Source: Psammoneis japonica
Taxonomy: Eukaryota
Direction of reading: 5' to 3'
DNA length: 64,000 nt
Assembly: GCA_008632985.1 (NCBI GenBank)
Contig: QPGO01000229.1
Span: 1 to 64,000 of the forward strand
The notes beneath the pieces were generated by a model, which worked only from the letters and a program-made list of their open reading frames with translations, did no database searches and was not told the DNA's origin. A program made the translations under genes and the position numbers. Positions 4,556 through 53,660 of the stretch are shown one piece after another. The first letter of the stretch is position 1, and every line of letters starts with the position of its first letter.

Positions 4556-6930
4556 ATGATGAGCACGAATAATATTGAAAAACCAGGTGATCCTCGATTG
4601 GGCAGCTTGCTGCATGAGGGGCTGAACGGTGACATTGTTTTTGTACTCTGGCCGTGTGATGAGGTATGCTAGAACGTTGCTCCGTTTGATGCGACTTGGT
4701 CTACCGTGCATAGATCCTAATCATTCATTGTGAATTGCGATGTATTTTATTTACAGGGTGTCAAGCGAAACGGGGGACGACTTGGTGCGGCAGGAGCGCC
4801 TGCGAGGTTTCTACAGTTTCTTAAAAGCATGGGAACTATCCATAATCCGGAGTATGACATCGATTTGTCATCCATTGAATTGTCGTATTATTTTGTCAAC
4901 CTAAAAGATCTGGATTTTGACAAGGACAAAGGTGCATTGGACAAAGCGCACGATCGTCTAACGGAGATAGTATCCAAAGTGCTCGATTCGGGAGGAGTTC
5001 CCTTTTGTATCGGTGGAGGCAACGACCAATCATTTGCAAACTGGAGAGCCTTGAGGCAGTCAGTGGCAAAAGGCTCCCGAATAGGAGTTGTGAACGTCGA
5101 CGCTCACTTGGATGTTCGGCCACTTGCCAATGGACAGCCTCATTCGGGTACGCCGTTTCGGCAAATTCTGGACTACGACGCCGCAGCCAGAGACGGGACA
5201 ACAGTCTTGTGTGAATTCGCAGCTCAAGGCAGTCAGTGTAGCAAGGCCCATGCGAACTATGTAACTTGCAGGGGAGGCTCGATAATGTGGTTGAGTCAAG
5301 TACGAACCGTCGCCATGTCCCACTTTAAAGATGTTTTGGCACGCCATCATGCCTCTGGCATAGACCATGAGTTCGTGTCATTCGACTTGGACGCGATCAA
5401 AGCTTCTGACTGCCCCGGTGTCTCGTGCCCATCCAACACCGGTCTCACGGCAGAGGACGCAATAGGAATCATGAGAATGGCGGGGGAGGCAAGGCATGTA
5501 AAACTTGTGGACATGTCGGAAATGAATCCAAAGATTGAGGACTACATTACCCCTCGCCTTGCCGTGCAAATGGCGTATTCTTTTATTCTTGGCTACACGA
5601 AGCGCGACCGCGAATCAGTTCCTTTGAAAGACCGACACTTGAGCATTCCGCATCGTCGGGCTTTTCGCCTTCGTATTTCCCACCTGAGTCAGTTAGTTTG
5701 CGTCGAAGATGTTCAGAAACAGGGTTTCCGAACGGGCGAGCATATGAGGATACTCAACATTGTCGAGGATGGCACGATTCTTGTGGATCGGAATGGCCGC
5801 ATTGCTTATGCTGGTCCAGCCGAGGATGCTCCTGATGTTGACAAGGACGAAGTCGAACAGGAAATTGATGGAGAAGGCAAATCAGCCATACCTGGACTCT
5901 GTGATGGACATACACATTCCTGTTGGGCTGGTGATAGAGTGAATGAATTTTCGATGAAGCTAGCGGGCGCCACTTACATGGATATTCACAAGAAAGGCGG
6001 GGGCATAGGCTTCACTGTCAAACACACCCAACAAACTGACGAAGCGAGCTTGTACACAAGTCTGATAGAGCGACTAGATGACATGAATAAGACTGGTACG
6101 ACACTTGTGGAATGCAAAAGCGGTTACGGGCTCGATGTTACGACTGAGCTAAAAATGCTGCGAGTAATTGATAAGGCTCATCACAATCTGGGGCACGTAG
6201 ACGTTGTTGGGAATTTCTGTGGTGCGCACTCGATTCTACAAGGAATGACGGAGGAAGAAGCCTTGGATTGCGTAATAAACAAAATGATCCCGGCTTTGAC
6301 TGAGGAGAAGAAACATGGTAGAATGGCCTCGACAAGGCTAATTGACGTGTTTGCAGAAGATGGGGTATTTAGCAACTCGTCGACAAAAGCTATTCTCGAA
6401 GCTGGAGCACGAATTGGATTGCTCGGCAATTTTCACGGTGATGAACTCACGTATCAAGCATGCGGCGAACTGGCTGGAAAATGAGGTGCCGCGCAGTGAG
6501 CCACCTAGAGCATGTCAGCGATGAAGGAATTTCAGCAATGGCAGAAAGCCATACGGCAGCTATACTTCTACCCACTACGGCCTATGTGCTAAGGATGAAG
6601 CCACCCCCTGCCCGTAAACTTATCGACAACGGGGTTCCCGTTGCTCTCGGCTCAGACTTCAATCCAAACGCCCACTGCTCATCCATGGCTCACGTGATGA
6701 ATCTTGCATGCGTCACGATGCATTTGTGTGTTGAAGAAGCCCTTGTTGCCAGCACGCTTAACGCAGCATACTCAATGGGCATGCAAGAGAGTCACGGCAG
6801 TTTGGAAGTCGGCAAGCACGGCGACATTGTACTTGTAAATGCTCGACGATGGGAGCACATCATTTATCAATTCGGTGGCATCCCGCCTTTGTTCGCCGTG
6901 ATCAAAGACGGAATCGTAAGACGTTTGTAA
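4556..6930 (+). CDS. hutG-hutI: Fusion of formimidoylglutamase (HutG, arginase family) and imidazolonepropionase (HutI)
   Basis: Exon 1 at 4556-4663 (GDPRLG...WPCDE), GT-AG intron 4664-4756, then GVKRNGGRLGAAGAP, GGGNDQS, NVDAHLDVR, SGTPFRQ, SFDLDAI...PGVSCP (HutG). In the same frame follow PGLCDGHTH, GDRVNEF, GATYMDIHKKGGGI, GTTLVECKSGYG, DVFAE, HGDEL, and after a 1 nt A-run frameshift near 6480, SHLE, ALGSDFNP, GSLEVGK (HutI). Confidence 0.9.
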
Positions 6931-6969: not shown

Positions 6970-9900
6970 TTAAAGGTGCTTCATTGGGATGTTAATGCTG
7001 TGCTTTCTCGCCGTTTCTTCTGCTTCTTCGTACCCAGCATCGACGTGGCGCATGACACCGGTAGCAGGGTCGCCTTGCAAGACTCGTCTCAAGCGCAACT
7101 CTGCTTCTTGTGTCCCATCAGCGACAATAACTTGTCCAGCATGAATAGATTTGCCAATGCCGACCCCACCTCCATGATGTATTGAAACCCAAGTTGCACC
7201 ATTCACCGAATTTATCATGGCATTGAGCAGCGGCCAGTCAGCAATAGCGTCGGAACCGTCCTTCATACTTTCAGTTTCTCTGTTTGGCGAAGCGACAGAG
7301 CCGCAATCAAGGTGATCTCTCCCTATCACGATCGGTGCTGAGATTTTACCTTGGGCTACAAGTTGGTTGATGCGTACTCCAAACGCTTCTCGTTCGCCCA
7401 TACCAAGCCAACAGATTCGACAAGGAAGCCCTTGGAATTGAACTTTTTCTTGAGCTTGATCAATCCAACGTCGAAGAGGTTCGTCATTAGGAAATAGCTC
7501 CTTCACAGCCTCGTCAGTCACCGCAATATCCCTTGGATCTCCTGATAAAGCAACCCACCGAAAGGGCCCACGACCACGACAGAACTGAGGACGAATGAAG
7601 AGGGGTACAAATCCTTGAAACGAGAAAGCTTTTTCATAGCCACCTGCTTTCGCCTGACCACGAATATTGTTTCCATAGTCAAATACTACGGATCCCTTTT
7701 CTTTGAAGCCGACCATTGATCTAACTTGCTCCACCATTGACATGATCGACCGCTTTTTGTAGTCCTCGGGGTCGGACTTTCGAAGTCGAAGTGCCTCTGG
7801 GTAGCGCATTCCATTTGGCACGTATCCGTTTAGTTCGTCGTGGGCAGAGGTTTGATCAGTCTAAACAGTTGCCACACGAGGACAGAGTTGAGGGCAATCG
7901 TTCCGCAGTAATGCATGAGAATCCTCAAAGGATGGGACTTACCACCACGTCGGGGATGATACCTCTTGCAAGTAGCGCGGGGAACACGTCTGCGGCGTTG
8001 GCGACAACCCCGACAGACAAAGGAGTGTTGTTTGCCACTGCCTCTTGACACCACGAAATTGCTTCGTCTAGAGTCTCAGTGAGGCGATCCAAATACCGCG
8101 TCCTGATTCTGCGCTGGGCTCGATCCTTGTCTACTTCGACGCAGAGAGCCACGCCGCCGTTCATAGTGATAGCAAGTGGCTGAGCACCTATGGAATGAAT
8201 GAATACGAAAATGTTGAGATCTGCCCGTGAAGAAAAAATGACGACACACAAAACAATTTGTAAGTTAGTCTACGAACCTCCCATTCCCCCGAGCCCTCCT
8301 GTGAGTACCAGCCTACCAGCGAGAGTTCCATCGTAATGCTGCCTGGCTAATTCTGCAAGAGTCTCAAAGGTCCCCTGAAGAATTCCTTGGCTTCCGATAT
8401 AAATCCATGAACCAGCAGTCATTTGGCCATACATGATTAACCCTTTCGCTTCGAGTTCGCGGAAGTAATCCCAGGTCGCCCACGATGGGACAAGGTTGGA
8501 GTTTGCTATTAGGACTCGTGGAGCATCACGGTGGCTTCGAACGACACCCACCGGCTTTCCAGACTGTACCAATAAAGTTTCATCATCCTCGAGCTCCGTT
8601 AGCACCTTTAGGATCGCGGTCAACGCTTCGTGGTTCCGTGCAGCCTTGCCGGTGCCTCCATACACAACAAGGTGGTCAGGGTCCTCTGCCACATCTGGGT
8701 CCAGGTTGTTCAAAAGCATGCGATACGCAGCCTCTTGTTGCCATCCTTTGCAGTGCATTGTCTTTTTGGGAGCCACCGTCCCGCCATTTATCTCGCTCTG
8801 ACTTGCGGCATTAAGAGCGCATTGTACCGTCTTGGAGAGAATCCCGCTTCGCACTAGACGAGCCGCGGCCGCCATGTGCGGTGCCATCTCCACATCTTCT
8901 GGAAGAAACGGAATGTTTGAGCGAACGAGATCATGTGCTGCGGATGTACCTCTCCCCATTTTGGCGTTACTACCAAGCTCTCGACGCCGATACTCGACAC
9001 CTTGTGCTGCAGCCAACAATTCGATTCCCAGAATATTCTCAAGGTTTCGGAGGATACGTCTAGCTTGTCGAACCGAGATGGGACCATTGGACACGTGATC
9101 TTCCACGTTTGCTGAAGTGGGGAGGCTGTCGGCACTAGCAGGGAAACAAAGTGCCTTGTTTTCACTGGCCAGCGCTGCCGAAGTGTACTGTGTAAGCATA
9201 AACCCCGAATTCAAGCCACCCTTTTCTGTCAGAAATGGAGGTAGAATACCATTATTGCTCGCCGGATCGGTAAGGCGATTCAGTCTCCGTTCCGAGATGT
9301 TTCCTATTTCAGTCATTGCGAGCGAGAGATCATCAAAGGTGAGTGCTAGGGGTTCCCCATGAAAGTTCCCACCGCTCTTGGCAACAGCGGATCCATCGTC
9401 TTGGAAAAAGATGAGCGGGTTGTCCGTAACACTGTTCAATTCAATGCTCAAAATCCGTCTCGCATTTTGAAAGGCGTCAGCACAAGCTCCGTGCACCTGC
9501 GGCATGCATCGAAGCGAGTACGCGTCCTGAGGATCTTCTCCGAGATCGGAACGAACAAACGTGGATCCTTCCAATAGCGCTCGCAGCTCCCTTGCCGTTT
9601 CAATCTGACTCGGGTGCGGACGAACCTTTTGAATGTCGGGATCAAGGGCTGCCGCGGTTCCGTATAACGCCTCCAACGACAACGCACCGGTAATGTTGGC
9701 CACGTGCGCACAATTCTCGGCTTCCACAATCGCTAAGCACCCCAACGCTGCCATCATGGCTGTACCGTTTGTCAATGCCAAACCTTCTTTTGCTTCCAAC
9801 TCAACTGGTTTTAATTCTACTTTTGCCAATGCCTCGGCGCCAGCAAGGACTTTTCCGTCAACCACAGCTTTTCCTTCACCAATCATGACCAGCGACATGT

Positions 9901-10360
9901 GAGCCAACGGAGCAAGGTCGCCACTCGCACCCAATGATCCTTGTCGGGCACAATGGGATGAACCTCCGTTCAATCATGTTAGCAATAGTTCAAGAGTTGT
10001 CAGTCGTATACCAGAATACCCCGAAGCCAACGTGTTTGCCCGAATGAGCATCATGGCACGAACGGCGTCGGCTTCGAGAGGCTTGCCAACTCCGGCAGCA
10101 TGAGATCGAACAATGTTGCGTTGCAATTCTTTCAAATCAGCCTTTTCGATCAAGGTCTTTCGGAATGCTCCAAATCCTGTAGTGACACCATAGACCGTCT
10201 TGTTTTCGTTTACCATTTCTTGTACGGCCTCTGCACTCTTGTTGACCGCCTCAATCGCATCTCTTGACAGTCGCAACTTTACCGTCTCTTGTTCTGCTTT
10301 TGCAATCGCCACCACATTTTCAATTGTCAGTTGATGTCCATCAATCGTTAGTTCAAACAT
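6970..10360 (-). CDS. hutH-hutU: Fusion of histidine ammonia-lyase (HutH) and urocanate hydratase (HutU)
   Basis: HAL motifs [36 protein letters not shown] (MIO Ala-Ser-Gly), [31 protein letters not shown] and EDHVS run in frame into urocanase motifs [103 protein letters not shown] and HHGGGVGIG. Introns at 8188-8277 and 7861-7942; small indels near 9945-9980. Confidence 0.92.
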
Positions 10361-18499: not shown

Positions 18500-19837
18500 T
18501 GCTGTTCTTCAAAAAGGTTTTGTACCGTTAACAAATATTGATACCGGTAAGTCTAGTGAAGATCAACGTCGGAAAAGACGGCTTTGGCCGAGGGCCGCCG
18601 CTAGTAGATATCTATATATTACACCAAATGCCTATCTCCTAAGGTTCCATGTAAATGAATGCCAACAATGTCTTCTTCTGTTCCTTGTCGCAAAATATGG
18701 ATGCGTGAAACATGTACCGATACTGTGTTCTTCTCTCTTCTTCTTTGGGATCCTTGCTAATTTGTGCATGTATGTACTTGCCGTCTTTTACGCTTCTTGC
18801 TCCTCACGAACATAGTCCTTCGTCTGCGACTATTGCCAGTCCCTGGATCATTCTATCTCTTATTCCCTGCTCCAGTTGTCTTTGCTTGGATTGCCGTGGC
18901 CACACGTCTCTGCAACAATCAGATCGCCAACTGATGCAGTTTGGCCCTGCCACACAAGGCACATGTCGGTGTCAATCACCCTAATGACGATACCATCGTA
19001 CTCGAGCTTCTGGAGAGGATTGGATGAGTCGCACTCCTGGAGACGGACCGTCTTTCCCTCTTCTAGAGGCCATGAAAGACCGGCCTGGATGCAGTAATCG
19101 TCGTCGAGTTCACTCTCAAACAGGCCATTACTACGCATCCGGAACCCGGTACATCCTGTTCCCAGGGCGAGCTTGGGTCTGCAGTTGCACACCGATGCCT
19201 GAACGCCGAGGCAGAGACCATCGGCATCATCGTTTCCGAAGTGTGTGTAGGAAGAACCTAATTTCCGTAAACCACCATGCGTGTCGTCGAGCACTTTCCA
19301 TCCACCTTGGACAAGAGGAATGGCGACAAGCGAGAATAACGCATGCACGGAGAGCTTCATCGTTGTTACAGTGAAAAGATGTTGTTTGTCGATTGATTGA
19401 GATGCTTCAATATATGAGTTGGAAAAATGACATTCATTTTTTTGGAAGCCCATCACTGCAAGTCTCCGCTCTGCTCGCAGAAAGAGACATTCTTACATAT
19501 GACACGATTGATTTGTTATGCGAGCCTTTCCAAGGCAATATAATCGGGGGCCCTTGCGATTCGGGGTCGCGCTTTCGGTCGGATGCGTCTATTGAGAACA
19601 TCAATCGTGTCGCTTGAAAGGTCCTTCTCCGCGATGCTGAATCGTGAAAGAAAGTTCTTACGATTGGATTGTTATGGGGCCTTACATAAAGGGCAAGTCC
19701 TTCATGATTCACTTCGCGCTTTCACAATTAACAGAGTCGCGGTTTCATGGAGGCGGTTCAAGATGATTCTCTTCACAGTTTGAGTTCGCAGTGCAGTGTT
19801 CACAGTCGAGACCGAAGATGAGAGAACCTTCTGCATT
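18500..19837. repeat. Segmental duplication, copy 1 (paired with ~33969-35330)
   Basis: Long high-identity match from CTGTTCTTCAA...TTTTGTACCGT through ...GATGATTCTCTTCACAGT. Homology resumes just after the 3' LTR (23911-23933 vs 35300-35322). Confidence 0.9.
18860..19360 (-). CDS. Small secreted ricin-B-lectin-like protein, copy 1
   Basis: Signal peptide MKLSVHALFSLVAIPLVQG. Cys-paired motifs GLCLGV, DYCIQAG, VRLQECDSSNPLQ, DMCLVWQG and VAETC...NW resemble beta-trefoil repeats. Confidence 0.65.
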   Translation of the reverse strand: MKLSVHALFSLVAIPLVQGGWKVLDDTHGGLRKLGSSYTHFGNDDADGLCLGVQASVCNCRPKLALGTGCTGFRMRSNGLFESELDDDYCIQAGLSWPLEEGKTVRLQECDSSNPLQKLEYDGIVIRVIDTDMCLVWQGQTASVGDLIVAETCGHGNPSKDNWSRE

Positions 19838-33968: not shown

Positions 33969-35330
33969 CTGTTCTTCAATAATGTTTTGTACCGTAAATA
34001 AATGATGCCGGCAGTGAAGGTCAACGTCGGAAAAGACGGCTTTGGCCGGAGGCCGCCGCTAGTATCTATATATTACGCCAAACGCCTGTCTCATAAGGTT
34101 CCATGTAAATGAATGCCAACAACGTCTGCTTCTGTTCCTCGTCGCAAATATGGATGCGTGAAACATGTACCGATACTGTGCTCTTCTTTCTTCTTCTATG
34201 GGATCCTTGCTAATTTGTGCATGTATGTACTTGCCGTCTTTTACCCTTCTTGCTCCTCACGAACATAGTCCTTCGTCTGCGACTATTGCCAGTCCCTGGA
34301 TCATTTTGCCTCTCATTCCCTGCTCCAGTTGTCTTTGCTTGGATTGCCATGGCCGCACGTCTCTGCAACAATCAGATCGCCAACTGACGCAGTTTGGCCC
34401 TGCCAAACAAGGCACATGTCGGTGTCAATCACCCTAATGACGATACCATCGTACTCGAGCTTCTGGAGAGGATTGGATGAGTCGCACTCCTGGAGACGGA
34501 CTGTCTTTCCCTCTTCTAGAGGCCATGAAAGACCGGCCTGGATGCAGTAGTCGTTGTCGAGTTCACTCTCAAACAGGCCATTACTACGCATCCGGAATCT
34601 TGTACATCCTGTGCCCAAGGCGAGCTTGGGTCTGCAGTTACACACCGATGCCTGAACTCCGAGGCAGAGACCGTCAGCATCATCGTTTCCAAAGAGTTTA
34701 TAGTTTGTACTTAATTTTCGTAAACCATCATGCGTGTCGTCGAGCACTTTCCATCCGCCGTGGACAAGAGGAAAGGCGACAAGCGAGAATAACGCATGCA
34801 CGAAGAGCTTCATCGTTGTTACAGTGAAAAGATGTTGTTTGTCGATTGATTGAGATGCTTCAATGTGATTTGGAAAAATGGCACTTATTCTTAGAAGCCC
34901 ATCACTGCAGTCTCCGCTCTGCTTCGTTCGTAGAAAGAGACATATCTATCACACGATTGATTTGTTATGCGAGCCCTTCCAAGGCAATACAATCGGGGCC
35001 CAATGAGCTACGATTGCGATTCAGGGTCGCGCTTTCGGCCGTATTCAACTATTGAGAATGTCAATCGTGTCGCTTGAAAGGCCCTTCTCCGCGATGCTGA
35101 ATCGTGAGAGAAAATTCTTACGATTGGATTCGCTATGGGACCTTATTTATGTTCCTAAAGGGCAATGCAAAACGGGGTGTCCTTCATGATTCACTTCGCG
35201 CTTTCACAATGGACTCACGAATCAGAGTCGCGGTTTCATGGAGGCGGTTCAAGATGATTCTCTTCACAGTCGAGATGAAAGACCCTTCTCTCCTTGTTCG
35301 CATGTACGATCCTTTGTCTGTGGGAGAAAC
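33969..35330. repeat. Segmental duplication, copy 2 (paired with ~18500-19837)
   Basis: Direct-orientation, high-identity match to copy 1. Confidence 0.9.
34313..34813 (-). CDS. Small secreted ricin-B-lectin-like protein, copy 2
   Basis: Near-identical paralogue of 18860-19360, with differences mostly in the N-terminal part. Confidence 0.65.
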   Translation of the reverse strand: MKLFVHALFSLVAFPLVHGGWKVLDDTHDGLRKLSTNYKLFGNDDADGLCLGVQASVCNCRPKLALGTGCTRFRMRSNGLFESELDNDYCIQAGLSWPLEEGKTVRLQECDSSNPLQKLEYDGIVIRVIDTDMCLVWQGQTASVGDLIVAETCGHGNPSKDNWSRE

Positions 35331-47650: not shown

Positions 47651-47959
47651 TTCATTCTTGAAGTAAAGACCACACAGCCTGGAAAATGGGTGCAGTGAGG
47701 GAGAGCGAAAGGCGAGTTGTCGGAAGCGGTGAAGAGGCGGAAAAAGAGGAAAGAGGTGATGTGCTGTGCCGAGCGCCGCCAAAAAGGAGAGACCTCGTGA
47801 AATATGTCCAGACAGCTCCCAGCAGACTGACCGATAGAGTCAACAGAGCAGGACTACACCATCAACGGCAAACTCTCTACACTACTTGACTTAACGTTAC
47901 ACACGAACAACTGTCTTACACCCGAACCCCACGTACGCACTATTCAAACGACTTGAGCC

Positions 47960-50900
47960 ACGTAGCAGATCTCTCTGTTTGTTTCTTTCGGACCTCACGC
48001 CTGGCCTCGACGAAATGCGAAATGATGCCCCACAATCAAATTGCCATCGATTTTCCACCCGCATGCGTTTTATGTGAGCGACCGCTCCAACACGCGACAT
48101 ATCCCCATGCATGCGCAAGACATTCACGCACGCTTCATAACACTCGTCGCCGACCTTGGCATCGCCGCAAATGTAATAAAACGTGTCGTCTCGCATAAGA
48201 AGTTTGCACAATTCTTCGCCGGCGTCCTTTAAGGCTTGTTGGACATAACGCTTGGGAACGCCAGGTTCGCGGGACATGGCCAAGTGGCGCTTCAGCACAC
48301 CATCTGTCACCCAATCGTCAACCTCTTGAGCATAAATGCGTTCCTTGTTGGAGCGACATCCAAAAAACAAATGGCCTCGCCAATGTCTGTATTCTTCAAA
48401 CCATTCTCTGCGACATCCAAGGCACGATCCTGAATGAATCCCATCATAGGAGCAAGTCCGGTGCCTGCCCCCACCAAAATCATCGGAGACGAAATGTTTT
48501 GGGCCCACGAAAGGTGGAACCGCGGATGGCAATTCTCGCGCGATCTTTGCCGGGCATGAGCCTTGCCAAGTAGTTGGAACAAACTCCGTGGATCATGACA
48601 CTCTTGGTTGTTTCGACATGAACGACGCCGACGGAAATCGAGACCTTTCTCGGATCCTTTTTATCCGAAGACGAAATCGAGTAGTGCCGTGCACGCAACT
48701 TGGGCAGTAGTGGTAAGAGTTCGGCAAGCGTCAACAGTGGACCCTTTTGGATCTTAGACGCCCCACCGTGGCAAAGGACGGATCCGAAGGCTTCCAAAAA
48801 GTCAACGACAGTCGGATACGTCTGAACAAATGTTTCAGTTTGTTCTGACTTATCACCTCTCCGCTCGACGATATCCTTTATGTAAAAGGTGAGCTGACGA
48901 CACTTATCGGCGTCCTTTCCGCAGAAACCGTGACGCGCAGCAACGCCTTCGCCAATCGGACCTTCACCAGCGTCAGGGCACAAGACTCGCTTGATCATTT
49001 GCAAAAAGTCTGGAACGCCCCCTTCTGTGAAAGCCAGGTCAACGTATGCCTGCAGGGCGGTGGCCAACGTCTCCGGGGTTGAGAATGCCAGACGAGCGGG
49101 CAGTCTATCACCGTCCTCGATACAGTCCACGGCAAACGGCTGTTGGAGCTGATATGCGACAAGTTTCGAACGCTTCTCCTGCGAGGACGGACAAGCTGCT
49201 ACGAGTTCATCTCCGAAACAATCTGCAAAGCGACGGACCATTTCCATTGAGTTGAGCGGGTGCACGGCAAGATGGTCTCCACTGACGTAGCTCTCTCCAT
49301 CTGGTACGTTGAATGTGATCTTTCTCGTCGAGCGAGTATCAATGTCTCCGTTTTCCATGAGCTCTTCATTTTCAAGACAGAGGCTGCCGACGTCCTCTGG
49401 CCATGTGAAACGCTCAATCTGAGTCTTTGCTCTCCACCTCCTCTTCCACATTAGCTCATAACTGATAGAGGTCTGGCCACTTCCGGCTCTGCTCTCGAGG
49501 ACTTTCTTCAAAGTGTCAGGCATCACCAGACGGGTGACAAGATCAATCCATTGAGCAATGGGCGCTTCGGAGCCTGATGCATCGTCAACCTTCTTAAGTG
49601 GGAGCATCTGTTTCCCTCCTGCCTTTCGAAGCATCGCATCCAGCGCGATGCCCGCTTTGCAAAAGTCAGGGTACAGGGTCGAGCCGAGAGCAAGAACTGC
49701 AACGTCCGTCTCTTTCAATAAGTCGTCGGGAAGGGCAGTCTTGGCAAACACATCAGCATTACCTGGGGCCTCGCCCGCACCAAACGTACTGGTGAGCGCC
49801 AGTATTTTTGATATGCGACGCTCCTTTATGACTTCGAGGCCAGCAACTTCGTTCAGGGCTGCAACCTGTGGTTTGCACAATTTGAGCTTTCGCGCTAGGC
49901 GAAACGCGGCTGCCTCGGCCGTACCAGTCTCTGACCCAAAGATGATTAGAATACGAGGGATCTTGATGCCTTGGTCACCTTCATTTGGGTTGCTTGTTTC
50001 GACTTGTGCTGTCACCGCTCCAGCAGCAGTCACGGCATTTCGGTATTCCTCAGGGAATTCCATCACGTCAAAAGGCGAAGCGCAGTATTCATATCTACAG
50101 TGCAGAGCACACAGCAAGGTCAGATGGTGCACACTCACGTGTCGCATTCCAATGTAACAAAACCAACTTACTGTGGTGCGACGTAAAAGTCACGCATCTC
50201 GTGGTGCCAAGTCACGTTGGTGGGGCCCGTCAGACCACCGATCCAGCTCCACTGCCCGGGGCATTCACGCCCGGCATCACGCTCACGCTTGCAGTGGACC
50301 ATGAACGAGTTTCCTACAGTCTCCATGTCAACCATTGTAAATCCCTGCTTTTCGAACGAATAGTTCAACGCGACATCCATCTCGACATAGGCACGCTGTT
50401 CATAGATTCGCTTTGTCTCGGTACTGATTCCCATGGTTTCTGACCACTCCTTAGCAAGCTTGTAGCGCTCAAAGAGGTTTCTGACAACTTCAACGGATAC
50501 AAACCAGCCATTGAAGGGCATGCACTGATAGTCGACACCTCCAATGTTCATGTTGAAGTTCGAAATCGCAGGTACTGCTGCCCAGCGGAGACCAAGCTCC
50601 TTGATGGCAGGGCAATCGGGGTGCTCAATGTGCTGAGGAAAAAGACGACGCGGGCATGAAAAGTGAGACGGGTACAGCGTGCGACGAGCCGCGTACAACA
50701 ACTCTACTTACGACTTCGTGAACAAACTCTTTGGGAAGTTGATAGACGTAGGGCTTTCTGGTGCCTGGGATCTTAAAAGAAGAGGGAGGACATCATGACG
50801 CGTCTTCTTCTCCGGCGGCTCCCAGTACCCATTCTCGATTATATAGTCCGTGAATCCCACATTGGCCGGATCACCCAAAACCTCTCCCGTCTCCTCGTTC

Positions 50901-53050
50901 TTGTACCCTGCGTATCGTACAAATTGTGACGACCAAAACCGCGTGCCCCACATTTCATTGATAGTTTTTGGCTTGTACACACTCATGACACTCTGAATGT
51001 TGGTACCACAGGTGGCAATTCGCAAGTGCTCCTCCACGTCTGCAAAGATTTCATCGGGCGCCTCAATGTGACGGCAGTCGCGAACCATGAGCGTATTCCA
51101 AGCGATGCGGCCAATGCATTTGGACGAGTTCCTCCACGCCAACCTGGCCCCAATCTGAAGTTCCTCGGATGTGTGGGTGTACGTTCCTGTTGACTCGATT
51201 TCCAGTTTCACTTCCATCAAACGACGGTTCAACTGGTCGTTTGACCAGTTGAGCTCCGTCGCGGCTTGACCAAAAAAGTCTTCTGCTTCGGCAATGAACT
51301 TTTCTTCCCAAACCATGCTGTGATAGATCATCACCATGAGTTCCACGTATACGACTAGCAAATGATTCTTCCAACTCGTCGGCAGTGAAATGACTGTCTT
51401 CATTTTTGGTCAACTCTTCCTCCTCTTCGAGGAACGGCCGTATTGTTTTCAAGAGCTGGCCACCGACAATTGGGTAGGCCCACGTGGGGATTCCACTTCG
51501 ACGATGCATTTCATTCAAATGATCGACCACGCGGCGAAAGGAGGTTCCATACATGCCAATCTGATTGACTTGCTTCACCATCATGTCGAGCGTTTGCTGC
51601 AAGCAAAGCGGAAAAAACAAGTGAGAAAACCTTTACCTTGTGATTCTATTCTGCAACGTCTCTCCCGCAAATATTACGTACTGCAAAGTGAAGAGCCAAG
51701 GAATCCATATCCGTATGCTTGAAAAAGTCGAGGATCTCTTCATGGTTGGTCAAGAGCTGACGATAAAACGTTTCTCCAATAAAAGTGACTTTGCTCGTCT
51801 CACCGCTTGATGTAACTCGATCCCAGAAGCGAGGCATGCCGATCTGAAAGACTTGCGTTCGAAATCGGGCGTGAAGCACCTGAATGCCTTCAATGGCTCC
51901 CTTGGCGACAATCATGGAGACAAACGCAGCCATGGCACTCTCCATGGGAGGCTTTTCCAAATCTTCCAGGTCGGCTTCTTCAGCATATGGAGAGTGTGTT
52001 TGGCAAGCCCAAAGAAATGCCTTGCAAAAGGAAAGCCAATGAGTCGGTAAGACACCGCAGCGGGCATAGATGCGAAAGTACTCTTCCGGGGTTCCCTCCT
52101 GGGGATTAAATCGCTTCATTCCCCAGAATCCGGAAGGCGACGTCTTGAGTACCTCCGCCACGGGTCGATATGCTTCTCTCTGAACCGTCTGTGTATGAGG
52201 ACAGAGAGTACGAACGCAGGCGTCCAACATGGCAATGATTAACGGCCTTCCATGAATAAGTCTAGTTCCGAGACACTGACCGAGAGGATCAATTCCTTGT
52301 TCGACTTGATCGCAAGCCTTTAAATGTAGACTCTCGACCGTCAGAGGCGGATCGGCTGTGGCGTTGTCCTGGAGAAAGTGTTCCAGAGCCACCAGAATTC
52401 GCCAACGTCCAAAAATGGCTTCCGAGAATTCCGTTTGGAACGCCAACACCTTGTTCCAGCCTTCCATAACGAGGACGGCATCTGTCTTGTTGGAAAAGCC
52501 CCTACTGACACCGTACTCGGTTTCGAGCTTTTCCATGGCGCTCGAAATGAGCTCCTGGAGCTTTTCGTCCGTCATGGCCGCCATGGTTTTTCGTTGTTGT
52601 ATAAGTTCTCTGGGATCAATAGTTCGCCTCGATCCCTGGTCCTTGCTCCTGCTGTCGAAGTTCTTCTTGACGTATCTCTGTGTCACTTTTGCAACTTCAT
52701 TCCGCGTCATTCGGCCGAGCACAGGAATCCGGCATCTTCAAGTGCCGAGTGGGTCCTACCTTGTGCGCGAGCCAATCAGAGTTGGTCCTCCTTCAATACT
52801 TAGGAACTACGGTCGACGTGGGCAACCTCACTTAGGGGTCTCGTGTTTGTCCATTACAACCATACATGTCGCTTGCTGGCGGCAGTGTCCATTCTACGCA
52901 TTTTCCGGTCAAGGGATGCTGGCCGACGCGGAGTGAGATCTTCGAGCCTCCAGTTGGCACCGGCAAGTTTCCTTCACTTCTTGCGAGGACCAGGGACCTG
53001 GGACCAGGAACGATCACATCGATGGCGCTGACAGCTGTTGACATGCTGTG
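47960..53050 (-). CDS. NOS: Nitric oxide synthase with N-terminal globin domain(s): globin-NOSoxy-FMN-FAD-NADPH, multi-exon, several frameshifts
   Basis: Globin IGETFYRQLLTNHEEILDFF...HLNEMHRRSGIPTWAYPIVGGQLL. NOSoxy EIESTGTYTHTSEELQIGARLAWRNSSKCIGRIAW, QFVRYAGY, GDPANV, WAAVPAIS, PFNGWF, CPGQWSWIGG. Flavodoxin IFGSETGTAE, TSTFGAGEAP. FNR GDHLAV, RHYSISSS, GVCSNYL, VGAGTGLAP, LFFGCR, YVQ, YICGD. Both ends are approximate. Confidence 0.9.
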
Positions 53051-53139
53051 CATCCATTAGATGACTGTTGTTTGCACAGCCATTTTGCTGGCAGATGCAC
53101 TCGTTTCCACTGACCAGATCCACCTTTTGATTCTTTCGG

Positions 53140-53660
53140 TTTTGCGAGTTGTGACGACGTTGCGAATTCCGCGACGTTGCGGACGTCCGTCATGATGTGG
53201 GTGTTGTGGAAACCTTCCTTCAAGGATCAGTTTTCTCAACAATGCGTTTTGCTGCGGAGTCCGCAACATTTCGTTGCAGAATCCACAACGACATTGTGGA
53301 TTCCGTGATGTTGCGGGCGTCCGCAAAACGTTGCGCACATTGTGGAAACCTGCCTTCGAGGATGAGGTTTCTCAAACATTGCGTTTCTTCACACGGAGTC
53401 CGCAACAATTCGTTGCAGAATCCACAATGACATTGCAGATTCCGCAATGCCATGAACATTGTGGAAACCTTCCTTTCGAGGATGAGGTTTCTCAAACATT
53501 GCGTTTGGTTACGGAGTCGGCAACAAAACAGTTCCGAAACGAATTGTTTCAGATTCCGTGATGTTGCGGACGTCCGCAATGATGCTGTGGTTTCAACATT
53601 CATCGTTGCGGATTCCGCAGCGCAACGTCATGGGTAAGGTGGAATCCGTAACATCCTTGG
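53140..53660. repeat. Short tandem array of palindromic units (~120-136 bp)
   Basis: TGTGGAAACCT..CTTC.AGGAT.AG.TTTCTCAA units start at 53205, 53341 and 53460. Many TTGCGGA/TCCGCAA inverted motifs. Confidence 0.75.

Follow-up and report, generated by a model that had tools for sequence, protein, structure and literature searches.

The window, a stretch of 64,000 nucleotides from Psammoneis japonica contig QPGO01000229.1, holds one minus-strand gene in which a pseudoglobin, a globin, a nitric oxide synthase (NOS) oxygenase, a flavodoxin, an FNR module and a C-terminal tail are joined. The protein would begin with a short hydrophilic N-terminus, followed in that order by a heme-less pseudoglobin, a heme globin and the remaining domains. 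All coordinates of the gene given here refer to the minus strand, where every motif quoted in the first-pass annotation was found in its place (52464-51107). Open reading frames, tblastn of 12 homologues, which aligned as collinear pieces along the gene, and programmatic joining place the coding sequence (~1510 aa) at 47940-52710, and not at 47960-53050 as first annotated. The first ATG is at 52710, with an in-frame TGA at 52738-52740; alternative in-frame ATGs are found at 52584 and 52575, the latter matching the start of a relative that is 74% identical (P0013). The stop codon is a TAG at 47940-47942.

Three introns interrupt the gene. Intron 1 (51597-51681; 85 nt, GTACGT..TTGCAG, phase 0) lies within the globin, and exactly these nucleotides are absent from a contig of public run X2; furthermore, the ORF prediction of P0013 runs beyond the same HFA boundary with no continuation of the globin. 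Intron 3 (50095-50171; 77 nt, GTAAGT..CTGTAG, phase 2) is likewise missing, to the exact nucleotide, from an X2 contig. Both skipped segments have GT..AG ends on the strand of the gene. Intron 2 (50633-50711; 79 nt, GTAAGT..CCTCAG) was deduced from frame logic and homologue alignment, and none of the X2 contigs listed crosses it. Run X2 is on record as 'DNA?', and its short, low-depth, spliced contigs suggest a transcriptome. The gene is eukaryotic, as its three spliceosomal introns (two of which the X2 contigs lack) and its neighbours NPL4 and BAP31 show. The proposed echo of a hut cluster is one of theme and not of place: the hut genes are found at 4.7-10 kb, some 38 kb from the NOS gene, and many unrelated genes stand in the interval, so that there is no physical cluster.

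The oxygenase domain (50172-51304) is recognized by Pfam NO_synthase on two pieces (E 2.7e-57 and 3.4e-44), and scores 194 bits against syNOS compared with 123 bits for the next match, eNOS. As judged from the alignment, it has a predicted heme-thiolate cysteine, Cys503, in WRNSSKCIGR (SKCIGR at 51124-51107), and a predicted substrate-binding Glu in FNGWFVSVE; in an alignment with 10 relatives, Cys503 and the FNGWF..E site have their counterparts, as do the motifs for FMN, FAD and NADPH. In calmodulin-regulated (metazoan-type) NOS, the CxxxxC zinc site of the oxygenase dimer is N-terminal. In the translated pieces no Cys occurs from the globin to the heme Cys, and consequently no CxxxxC zinc site was found. 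The linker between oxygenase and flavodoxin has 47 residues, 8 acidic and 2 basic, and no 18-residue window in it exceeds a net charge of 0, which agrees with the earlier remark that a basic calmodulin-binding helix is missing there.

C-terminal to the linker, on what is predicted to be the same chain, stands a diflavin reductase made of flavodoxin and FNR. The flavodoxin (FMN) domain (49548-49946) matches Flavodoxin_1 (E 1.5e-19) over profile positions 1-143 with no large insert. The FNR module (48027-49547), with putative FAD- and NADPH-binding motifs RHYSISS, GVCSNYL, VGAGTGLAP, YYICGD and RWQF.LWG, matches FAD_binding_1 (E 3.3e-18), while NAD_binding_1 stays below its 22-bit cut-off at 20.3 bits because the piece is broken by two indels. 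The reductase scores 166 bits against syNOS residues 859-1286, and 64-67 bits against P450-reductase and nNOS matches. The C-terminal tail (47943-48026) extends some 29 residues past the LWG motif and ends in ..WLKSFE; its frame, once the base supplied by public run X1 at 48035 is included, is 40% identical to the tail of P0001, and a W-L..(F/L/V) motif is common to the homologue tails.

Directly N-terminal of the oxygenase, and in the same frame once the extra base at 51354 is removed, lies what its residues mark as a heme globin (51357-51839), a putative NO dioxygenase module. It has Tyr316 (B10, in TFYRQLL), His341 and the proximal His374 (in NEMHRRSGI, 51515-51489). These three are kept in 20, 21 and 19 of 23 clade members, respectively, and in 56, 52 and 52 of 61 other pseudoglobin-NOS proteins. 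Since intron 1 splits the domain, it could be scored only in halves, neither of which had a Pfam match; their PDB globin matches were weak (best E 0.065, the second half with a single-domain haemoglobin), and the second half was the sole region without a syNOS match in the PDB search. Among relatives, 5 of the first 12 homologues score high enough for the Pfam Globin cut-off, and a precomputed Globin match exists on P0125, the closest full-length one. Motifs, Pfam matches and the single frame thus bear out the initial description of a globin with a proximal His immediately before a NOS oxygenase and reductase.

The pseudoglobin (51840-52485), a globin-like domain, contains EGWNKVL (52464-52444), LCPHTQ, RIYARCGV (52074-52051) and FCKAFLW (52029-52009). 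Exon-1 residues 168-351 match syNOS residues 230-392 by phmmer (E 4e-10), and a further weak stretch matches syNOS from residue 180. When an AlphaFold2 model of the domain (pLDDT 71) was compared by Foldseek, the only seven matches at E ≤ 0.001 were syNOS chains; globins came next, at E 0.17-0.6. The degenerate upstream segment noticed at first, with Tyr in the place of His, can thus be identified by sequence and fold as the pseudoglobin of syNOS. At the position of the proximal His, all 23 clade members have Phe or Leu and all 61 other pseudoglobin-NOS proteins have Phe, Leu or Tyr; from this missing His the domain is predicted to lack heme.

All 12 longer homologues carry the same N-terminal region and the NOS in one protein, and the family comprises 114 representatives among 1.84 billion at E ≤ 1e-3. 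The closest database proteins are P0123 (85% identity), P0013 and P0125 (67-70%); identity to named diatom sequences is 52-58% over the first 192 residues of the oxygenase piece. In a 120-row tree of the oxygenase domain, a quick search with SH-aLRT support, no bootstrap and an arbitrary root, the gene falls in a 30-row clade (support 99) together with Cylindrotheca, Seminavis, Epithemia and MMETSP sequences. By this placement among named diatom NOS, the gene is assigned to the diatom 'cyanobacteria-like' NOS clade. The clade is nested among bacterial pseudoglobin-NOS genes, and so the bacterial origin first proposed fits the tree, although among named prokaryotes it is not a cyanobacterium but an alphaproteobacterial MAG that lies nearest, with weak support (83). 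Nor is the architecture new for eukaryotes: globin-NOS of diatoms has been in print since 2015 (Di Dato 2015, PMC4648414; Correa-Aragunde 2018, PMC6104048; Del Castello 2020, PMC7554344), and NCBI already lists such a protein of Seminavis robusta under the name 'Nitric oxide synthase'.

If the enzyme works as its homologue syNOS does (Correa-Aragunde 2018; Nair & Crane 2026), electrons from NADPH would travel by way of FAD and FMN and reach the oxygenase's thiolate heme, where L-arginine would be converted into NO and citrulline. The His-ligated heme of the globin, reduced by the same reductase, would then act as a NO dioxygenase and turn much of this NO into nitrate, so that the enzyme would either recycle arginine nitrogen to nitrate or keep its own NO output short-lived. 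We infer this route from arginine through NO to nitrate by homology; within the syNOS type, the sources as available report biochemistry (NO and nitrate from arginine, pterin and Ca2+ dependence) for syNOS only. Taken as a whole, a single nuclear eukaryotic gene for a syNOS-type multidomain NOS, with syNOS-like NO/nitrate chemistry, is likely to be the best explanation of the locus.

The globin might instead sense gas or redox state, or regulate the synthase, in an enzyme that is mainly a source of NO signals, as has been proposed for diatom stress signalling; Di Dato 2015 (PMC4648414) places diatom NOS in such a signalling frame. We consider this unlikely. The E-helix His341 and a DMD..L..H motif are kept across the family, and 4 of 23 clade members retain the domain without the proximal His, which hints at a structural or regulatory role and implies that NO dioxygenase activity is not universal in the clade. 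Against a sensor, the window globin has Tyr B10, the proximal His and the Tyr of AYPIVG, a set that we take to be shared with NO-detoxifying globins such as Hmp, and the weak best PDB match of its second half is a single-domain haemoglobin. Furthermore, the globin of syNOS does make nitrate from NO, with ~70-75% of the product as nitrate in the available parts of PMC7554344 and 10.1101/2020.10.08.331702. Oxidation of NO to nitrate by the globin is consequently the role that we prefer.

The N-terminus departs from what was expected in one respect. Structure prediction upheld the pseudoglobin, whereas the C2 domain suggested at 52750-53050 found no profile, Pfam or useful PDB support. A profile built from six C2 regions of syNOS-like proteins, one of which (P0119) matches 9Q05 over residues 14-1446, found nothing at E ≤ 10 when run against the window's ORFs in all six frames, and the ORF at 52832-53056 gave no Pfam match and no useful PDB match. 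Of 221 family proteins the same profile matched 25, and no named eukaryote was among these. Deletion of C2 abolished NOS activity in syNOS, according to the sections available of PMC12922734, so that a natural C2-less form may behave differently, and with the Ca2+-sensing C2 missing, any NOS/NOD switch must be controlled otherwise than in syNOS. Three pseudoglobin cysteines, Cys170 (in the Cys-Pro motif of LCPH), Cys218 and Cys229, occur in 20, 14 and 17 of 23 diatom-type clade members, respectively, and in 0 of 61 other pseudoglobin-NOS proteins. It is conceivable, though we think it quite improbable, that the pseudoglobin is a thiol, heme or NO sensor setting NO synthesis against NO dioxygenation, with these clade-specific cysteines replacing the dropped Ca2+ switch; if true, this would be a mode of control not previously described for any NOS.

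The reading frame of the window's gene is broken at five places, all of which are 1-base differences from contigs of run X1 (depth 46-50). An extra base at 51354 separates the globin and oxygenase frames; its removal joins them, an X1 contig (depth 46.6) omits one base here, and in tblastn residues 503 to 505 of P0001 run across the site without a gap. The frame change near 51360 in the earlier annotation is thus not real. At the other four places X1 adds one base: at 50774-50775 within the oxygenase, where record 15 of X2 has one gap; at 48498-48499, just before the NADPH-binding motif, where an X2 contig ends in loose letters that fit the insertion of X1; at 48372-48373, restoring ..GEA.LFFGCRS.. 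as in homologues; and at 48035-48036, before the C-terminal tail, restoring RWQF.LWG as in homologues. The frameshifts can therefore be corrected as single-base differences, and globin and oxygenase are in one frame once these indels are set aside. A deletion in X1 at 49018 requires a compensating indel, and none was among the rows listed. Over 3.3 kb, 38 substitutions and 11 gaps separate X1 from the window, so X1 may represent a different allele or strain and not a corrected version of this sequence; it contains 64% of the words sampled from the window. Of eight X2 contigs compared, six are at least 99% like the window and agree with it at most sites where X1 differs; three X2 contigs have gaps over the sites of X1 indels. 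X2 has no coverage over 51112-51479, and for this reason the globin-oxygenase junction rests on X1 and the homologues.

That gap in coverage would leave room for a globin-less NOS that starts internally and is made in addition or instead, in which case globin and oxygenase would not always share a transcript. Two such transcripts, with and without globin, are described for centric diatoms in the part of Correa-Aragunde 2018 (PMC6104048) available, citing Di Dato 2015. However, the two centric transcripts of Di Dato 2015, as far as the accessible text goes, fall in two separate, well-supported clades, and therefore suggest two distinct genes. In the window, one open frame results from the 1-base correction, the junction has neither stop nor intron, and the N-terminal region and the oxygenase are in one protein in 12 of the first 12 homologues, which makes an internal start very unlikely. 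That the gene is a decaying pseudogene, with five breaks that truly exist in the assembled haplotype while X1 comes from another allele or strain that is intact, is highly improbable. The substitutions and gaps do indicate that X1 is not the same molecule, and the word sharing is incomplete. Against a pseudogene, X2 agrees with the window at most sites where X1 differs, and even so three of its contigs are gapped over places of X1 indels and another fits the insertion at 48498; the homologous pieces are all free of premature stops, and every catalytic motif is intact. An intact gene in an assembly with single-base indels is thus the preferred reading. Since these indels occur about once per 400-700 bases in this gene, frame breaks at other places of the assembly should not be taken as signs of pseudogenes.

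The gene gives the clade of diatom globin-NOS a further member, from another lineage, with genomic sequence and mapped introns. It shows that eukaryotic members have retained the pseudoglobin of the 2026 syNOS structure but not the C2 regulator, which matters wherever syNOS serves as a model for algal NOS. Natural C2-less forms, eukaryotic and proteobacterial, must differ from syNOS in their regulation, and the NOS/NOD switch could be studied more simply in them. In the nitrogen economy of a diatom, the enzyme is a candidate for converting arginine into nitrate or into NO signals.

Among known systems, syNOS of Synechococcus sp. PCC 7335 (PDB 9Q05, 9Q06, 9Q0X, 9Q0Y, 9Q15) is the closest. It shares the order of pseudoglobin, globin, oxygenase, flavodoxin, FNR and tail, the heme-thiolate Cys, the proximal His of the globin and the flavin and NADPH motifs, and neither protein has a calmodulin-binding segment. 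It is the best solved match for the pseudoglobin and first half of the globin, for the oxygenase and for the reductase, and hence for every significantly matching region, in line with the initial comparison with syNOS. In syNOS, the pseudoglobin bridges globin and oxygenase at the dimer interface. In contrast to syNOS, which has an N-terminal Ca2+-sensing C2 (residues 1-134), the window gene has ~75 hydrophilic residues before the pseudoglobin, its oxygenase-flavodoxin linker is longer (47 residues against 10 in the syNOS paper), GGLTGPTN follows WSWI in place of the VPPLGGS of syNOS-like proteins, and spliceosomal introns and the three clade-specific pseudoglobin cysteines are present.

The diatom 'cyanobacteria-like' NOS, represented by the PmNOS protein from Pseudo-nitzschia multistriata and by MMETSP sequences (both in Di Dato 2015) and by the NOS of Seminavis robusta, belong to the same clade in different species. 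Seminavis P0141 has the same architecture, with Pfam Globin, NO_synthase and reductase matches; in the parts available of the diatom NOS literature, we found no description of the pseudoglobin or of the lack of C2. Mammalian-type calmodulin-regulated NOS, including the Ostreococcus type of algae, likewise joins oxygenase, diflavin reductase and C-terminal tail, whereas the window gene has no basic calmodulin-binding helix, no CxxxxC zinc site and no large insert in the FMN domain, and scores lower against this type than against syNOS (123 versus 194 bits, and 64 versus 166 bits). Finally, bacterial flavohaemoglobin Hmp also combines a globin with Tyr B10 and proximal His with an NAD(P)H-FAD reductase on one chain, and the proposed conversion of NO to nitrate would be alike; unlike Hmp, the window gene places a whole NOS oxygenase and a flavodoxin between globin and FNR, and its FNR is of the cytochrome P450 reductase type.

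Open reading frames and Pfam matches delineate a NOS gene as a series of open frames on the minus strand, between about 47.9 and 52.7 kb. An N-terminal frame of 352 codons, to which Pfam assigns no domain, is followed by a short frame with the motif NEMHRRSGI; this precedes two NO_synthase pieces (E 2.7e-57 and 3.4e-44), after which come Flavodoxin_1 (E 1.5e-19) and, downstream of it, FAD_binding_1 (3.3e-18), while NAD_binding_1 is weak (20.3 bits against a cut-off of 22 bits). All the pieces are collinear with 12 homologous proteins in tblastn comparisons. Three minus-strand introns of similar length and with canonical ends interrupt the gene: intron 1 at 51597-51681 (85 nt, GTACGT..TTGCAG), intron 2 at 50633-50711 (79 nt, GTAAGT..CCTCAG) and intron 3 at 50095-50171 (77 nt, GTAAGT..CTGTAG). 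On the same strand, an in-frame TGA (52738-52740) lies 5' of the first ATG of the coding sequence (52710), further ATGs are found at 52584 and 52575, and the stop codon is a TAG at 47940-47942. The start of P0013, a relative with 74% identity, coincides with the ATG at 52575; its reading continues beyond the same HFA boundary at which intron 1 lies, without carrying on as globin. The N-terminal 75 residues are hydrophilic (16 K/R, 11 D/E) and of low confidence in the AlphaFold2 model.

The frames were compared with three public runs of one sample (X1, X2 and X3), obtained from one search, of which X3 gave no contig matched to the stretch. X1 contigs are genome-like, with a depth of 44-50 and introns retained, and differ from the window by 38 substitutions over 3.3 kb. 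Every located frame break of the NOS gene coincides exactly with a single-base indel in X1: X1 has one base fewer at 51354, and one base more behind each of 50774, 48498, 48372 and 48035. With these indels the globin-to-oxygenase translation reads ..ESFA.VYVELMV.., as in homologues, and the translations ..PLL.KIPGT.., ..RGP.NISSPMILVGAGTG.., ..GEA.LFFGCRS.. and ..RWQF.LWG.. likewise match homologues. An X1 deletion at 49018 requires a compensating indel, none being present among the matches listed, and three X1 insertions at 49430-49442 amount to one extra codon. X2 contigs are short, with a depth of 3-6. Two lack precisely the sequence of introns 1 and 3; three are gapped over sites of X1 indels, and a further one has loose terminal letters compatible with the insertion behind 48498. 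Where X1 has substitutions relative to the window, X2 mostly carries the window's base. Cover by X2 is absent over 51112-51479 and no X2 contig among the matches listed spans intron 2, so that neither the globin-oxygenase junction nor intron 2 is documented by a spliced contig. These data are most simply explained if the window is an error-prone assembly and X2 a transcriptome of the organism; the kind of X2 is on record only as 'DNA?', and its transcriptome status is thus something we infer.

Because of the one-base difference in X1 at 51354, globin and oxygenase share one reading frame, and a real frame change near 51360, which the first-pass annotation had named as evidence against the fusion, is discounted. 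A mini-intron at about 51360 (donors GTCGTA, GTATAC or GTGGAA; acceptors CACAG or GCTAG) was rejected for the same X1 difference at the site, because most candidate lengths leave the frame unrestored, and because the sole frame-restoring candidate is 40 nt long, the real introns being 77-85 nt. A bacterial contaminant contig is rejected in view of the introns and of the eukaryotic genes nearby. Over 47800-53300 the window departs from X1 by a single-base indel roughly every 400-700 bases and by numerous A>G and T>C mismatches; frameshifts apparent in other genes of the assembly may be artefacts. At 52724-52767, just upstream of the first NOS ATG, X1 contigs break with loose ends unlike the window, where the alleles may differ in structure or the 5' end may be misassembled.

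In its gene content (SNF2, GT41, Sof1, CLC, DnaJ, BAP31, NPL4 and GDI) the window is unremarkable eukaryotic DNA. BAP31 lies downstream of the NOS gene, and NPL4 upstream of it beyond a degenerate direct-repeat array at 53159-53584, with units of about 120-140 bp and three families (39-56 nt, 67-90% identity). The histidine-utilisation genes, whose nitrogen-scavenging theme the NOS gene had been thought to echo, lie at 4.7-10 kb, about 38 kb away, and numerous unrelated genes separate the two; nothing found in the window links them physically or through regulation, and the idea gains no support. Within that group, the minus-strand frame 8273-9973 encodes an aromatic amino-acid (histidine) ammonia-lyase, represented by its C-terminal two thirds, and then Urocanase_N, and the minus-strand frame 6973-7860 the remainder of urocanase; by its sequence this looks like a fused HAL-urocanase gene at 6973-9973, adjoined by an arginase-family (formiminoglutamase-like) gene at 4721-6481 on the plus strand. 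Elsewhere, two minus-strand frames of equal length (210 aa; 18863-19492 and 34316-34945), about 15 kb apart, carry a ricin-type beta-trefoil lectin domain at the same position and are probably paralogues.

In the N-terminal region, residues 168-351 of exon 1 resemble residues 230-392 of syNOS, the globin-fused NOS of Synechococcus sp. PCC 7335 (E 4e-10), and a weak collinear stretch begins at syNOS residue 180. The syNOS structure paper describes a C2 domain (1-134), a heme-less pseudoglobin (179-339), a globin (340-473) and an oxygenase (474-852) (Nair & Crane 2026, PMC12922734); in the relevant literature searched, the term pseudoglobin occurs in that paper alone. An AlphaFold2 model of exon 1, made with a 13-row alignment, is all-helical (mean pLDDT 71.2, pTM 0.71), and at E <= 0.001 Foldseek matches it to seven syNOS chains and nothing else (E 7e-6 to 8e-5, aligned over about 267 columns), with ordinary globins next at E 0.17-0.6. 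The sequence match and the Foldseek ranking together identify the segment, at the level of sequence and modelled fold, as the syNOS pseudoglobin, and the degenerate globin-like segment of the first-pass annotation is thereby confirmed. The three best atlas clusters for exon 1, named 'Globin domain-containing', score 0.81-0.85, below the threshold of 0.9, and are a lead only. The Tyr that had been noticed in the window where a proximal His is expected is likewise confirmed; among relatives this position is Phe or Leu in 23/23 scored members of the diatom-type clade to which the window belongs, and Phe, Leu or Tyr in 61/61 other pseudoglobin-NOS proteins. The pseudoglobin region is rare, with 114 representatives at E <= 1e-3 among 1.84 billion proteins. 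Three cysteines in the segment at 52206-52009 (minus strand) set the clade apart: Cys170 (LCPH, a Cys-Pro dipeptide) occurs in 20, Cys218 in 14 and Cys229 in 17 of the 23 clade members, and each in 0/61 of the other proteins, a distribution which indicates that the clade acquired them.

The globin proper straddles the junction of exons 1 and 2 and retains Tyr316, His341 and the proximal His374. We take Tyr316 to be the B10 position, assigned after Hmp. Tyr316 is shared by 20 of the 23 clade members and 56 of the 61 other family members, His341 by 21 and 52, and His374 by 19 and 52. Pfam Globin reaches its cut-off in 5/12 of the first homologues, is weak in four and absent in three, and is precomputed on P0125, the closest full-length relative. 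Window exon 1 and the second globin half, searched as separate pieces split by intron 1, gave no Pfam match, and the second half found weak globin matches alone in the PDB (best E 0.065). Gln, Leu or Trp occupies the proximal-His position in P0001, P0012, P0032 and P0142 (4/23 clade members), the first of these being a close relative of the window protein; some clade members may carry a second heme-less globin.

In the catalytic core, the first half of the oxygenase scores 194 bits against syNOS (next best, eNOS, 123 bits) and the reductase 166 bits (next best, P450-reductase and nNOS, 64-67 bits). The heme Cys (WRNSSKCIGR) and the FNGWF..E site align with ten relatives, as do the FMN motifs, RHYSISS, GVCSNYL, VGAGTGLAP, YYICGD and the terminal RWQ..LWG. 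The fused architecture and the resemblance to syNOS proposed at the outset are upheld, with pseudoglobin, oxygenase and reductase all nearest to syNOS among solved structures. The linker between oxygenase and flavodoxin domains comprises 47 aa (8 acidic, 2 basic) without a positively charged 18-aa window, in agreement with the earlier remark that it holds no basic calmodulin-binding helix. The oxygenase piece has no Cys before the heme Cys, Pfam gives no large insert in the FMN domain, the segment after WSWI is altered in the clade according to the alignment, and the C-terminal tail extends about 29 aa after LWG, with 40% identity to that of P0001.

Genome-contig searches with the single protein found no relative, and those with an alignment (A2) did; the two A2 patterns were unable to detect syNOS, so that syNOS-like proteins came from protein searches. 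A quick maximum-likelihood analysis of 120 oxygenase domains gave a tree with SH-aLRT as its sole support measure, an arbitrary root on Bacillota NOS and no metazoan-type rows; a smaller 50-row tree agrees with it. The pseudoglobin-NOS group (96 rows, 87 with a detected pseudoglobin match) forms one clade (support 100). Nested in it is a clade of 30 rows (support 99) that unites the window with Cylindrotheca fusiformis, Seminavis robusta, Epithemia clementina and MMETSP/EukProt rows and contains no named bacteria. The sister, at a weak support of 83, comprises an alphaproteobacterial MAG locus (L001), whose ORF of 1382 aa is uninterrupted and has the same architecture, C2 being absent, and three unnamed proteins. 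Other eukaryotic rows, the dinoflagellate-type ones among them, lie in separate clades amid bacterial ones, and the named eukaryotes need at least two changes of label. This topology fits the bacterial origin suggested earlier, direction of transfer aside, but does not favour a specifically cyanobacterial source, given the alphaproteobacterial sister. Separately, four cyanobacterial loci (L009, L025, L029, L035), like L013 and other Sorangium loci, encode the oxygenase C-terminally, after about 450-870 residues, which in L035 include a BFD-like 2Fe-2S domain, FAD_binding_6 and NAD_binding_1; as read from these sequences, the reversed Sorangium-type architecture is found in cyanobacteria too.

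The fusion is not, as had been suggested, new for eukaryotes: diatom globin-NOS was reported by Di Dato et al. 2015 (PMC4648414) and restated by Del Castello et al. 2020 (PMC7554344), and the Seminavis protein is already named 'Nitric oxide synthase' at NCBI. The syNOS structure paper and its preprint mention eukaryotic relatives for the C-terminal tail alone, in text to which the supplements may add. From the parts present in the gene we infer, by homology with syNOS, a chemistry in which electrons would pass from NADPH through FAD and FMN to the thiolate heme of the oxygenase, which would convert arginine to NO, and in which the same reductase would also reduce the globin heme, allowing it to oxidize NO to nitrate.

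A C2 domain had been thought possible at 52750-53050. P0119, a protein resembling syNOS over residues 14-1446, provided with five relatives an N-terminal C2 profile, which matches 25/221 family proteins, including those of a Spirulinaceae cyanobacterium MAG and Spirosoma rhododendri. The profile gave no match in the 11 named eukaryotic proteins checked, nor any at E <= 10 in the six-frame ORFs of the window (>= 25 aa) and the loci L001-L003, and the ORF at 52832-53056 found nothing in Pfam or the PDB; a C2 domain there was rejected on these results. Among C2-bearing syNOS-like proteins, P0169 (1536 aa) has precomputed matches to the EF-hand families PF13405, PF13499, PF13833, PF13202 and PF00036, which suggests that here a NOS bears a further Ca2+-binding module.

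Regulation is the difference of consequence between the window NOS and syNOS. In syNOS, according to the structure paper, Ca2+ shifts C2 between oxygenase and globin, and deletion of C2 abolishes NOS activity (PMC12922734). C2 is present in syNOS, whereas the window gene lacks it, as do all of its clade and several bacterial relatives, and the pseudoglobin cysteines together with the altered segment after WSWI may be candidates for the replacement of the C2 switch.
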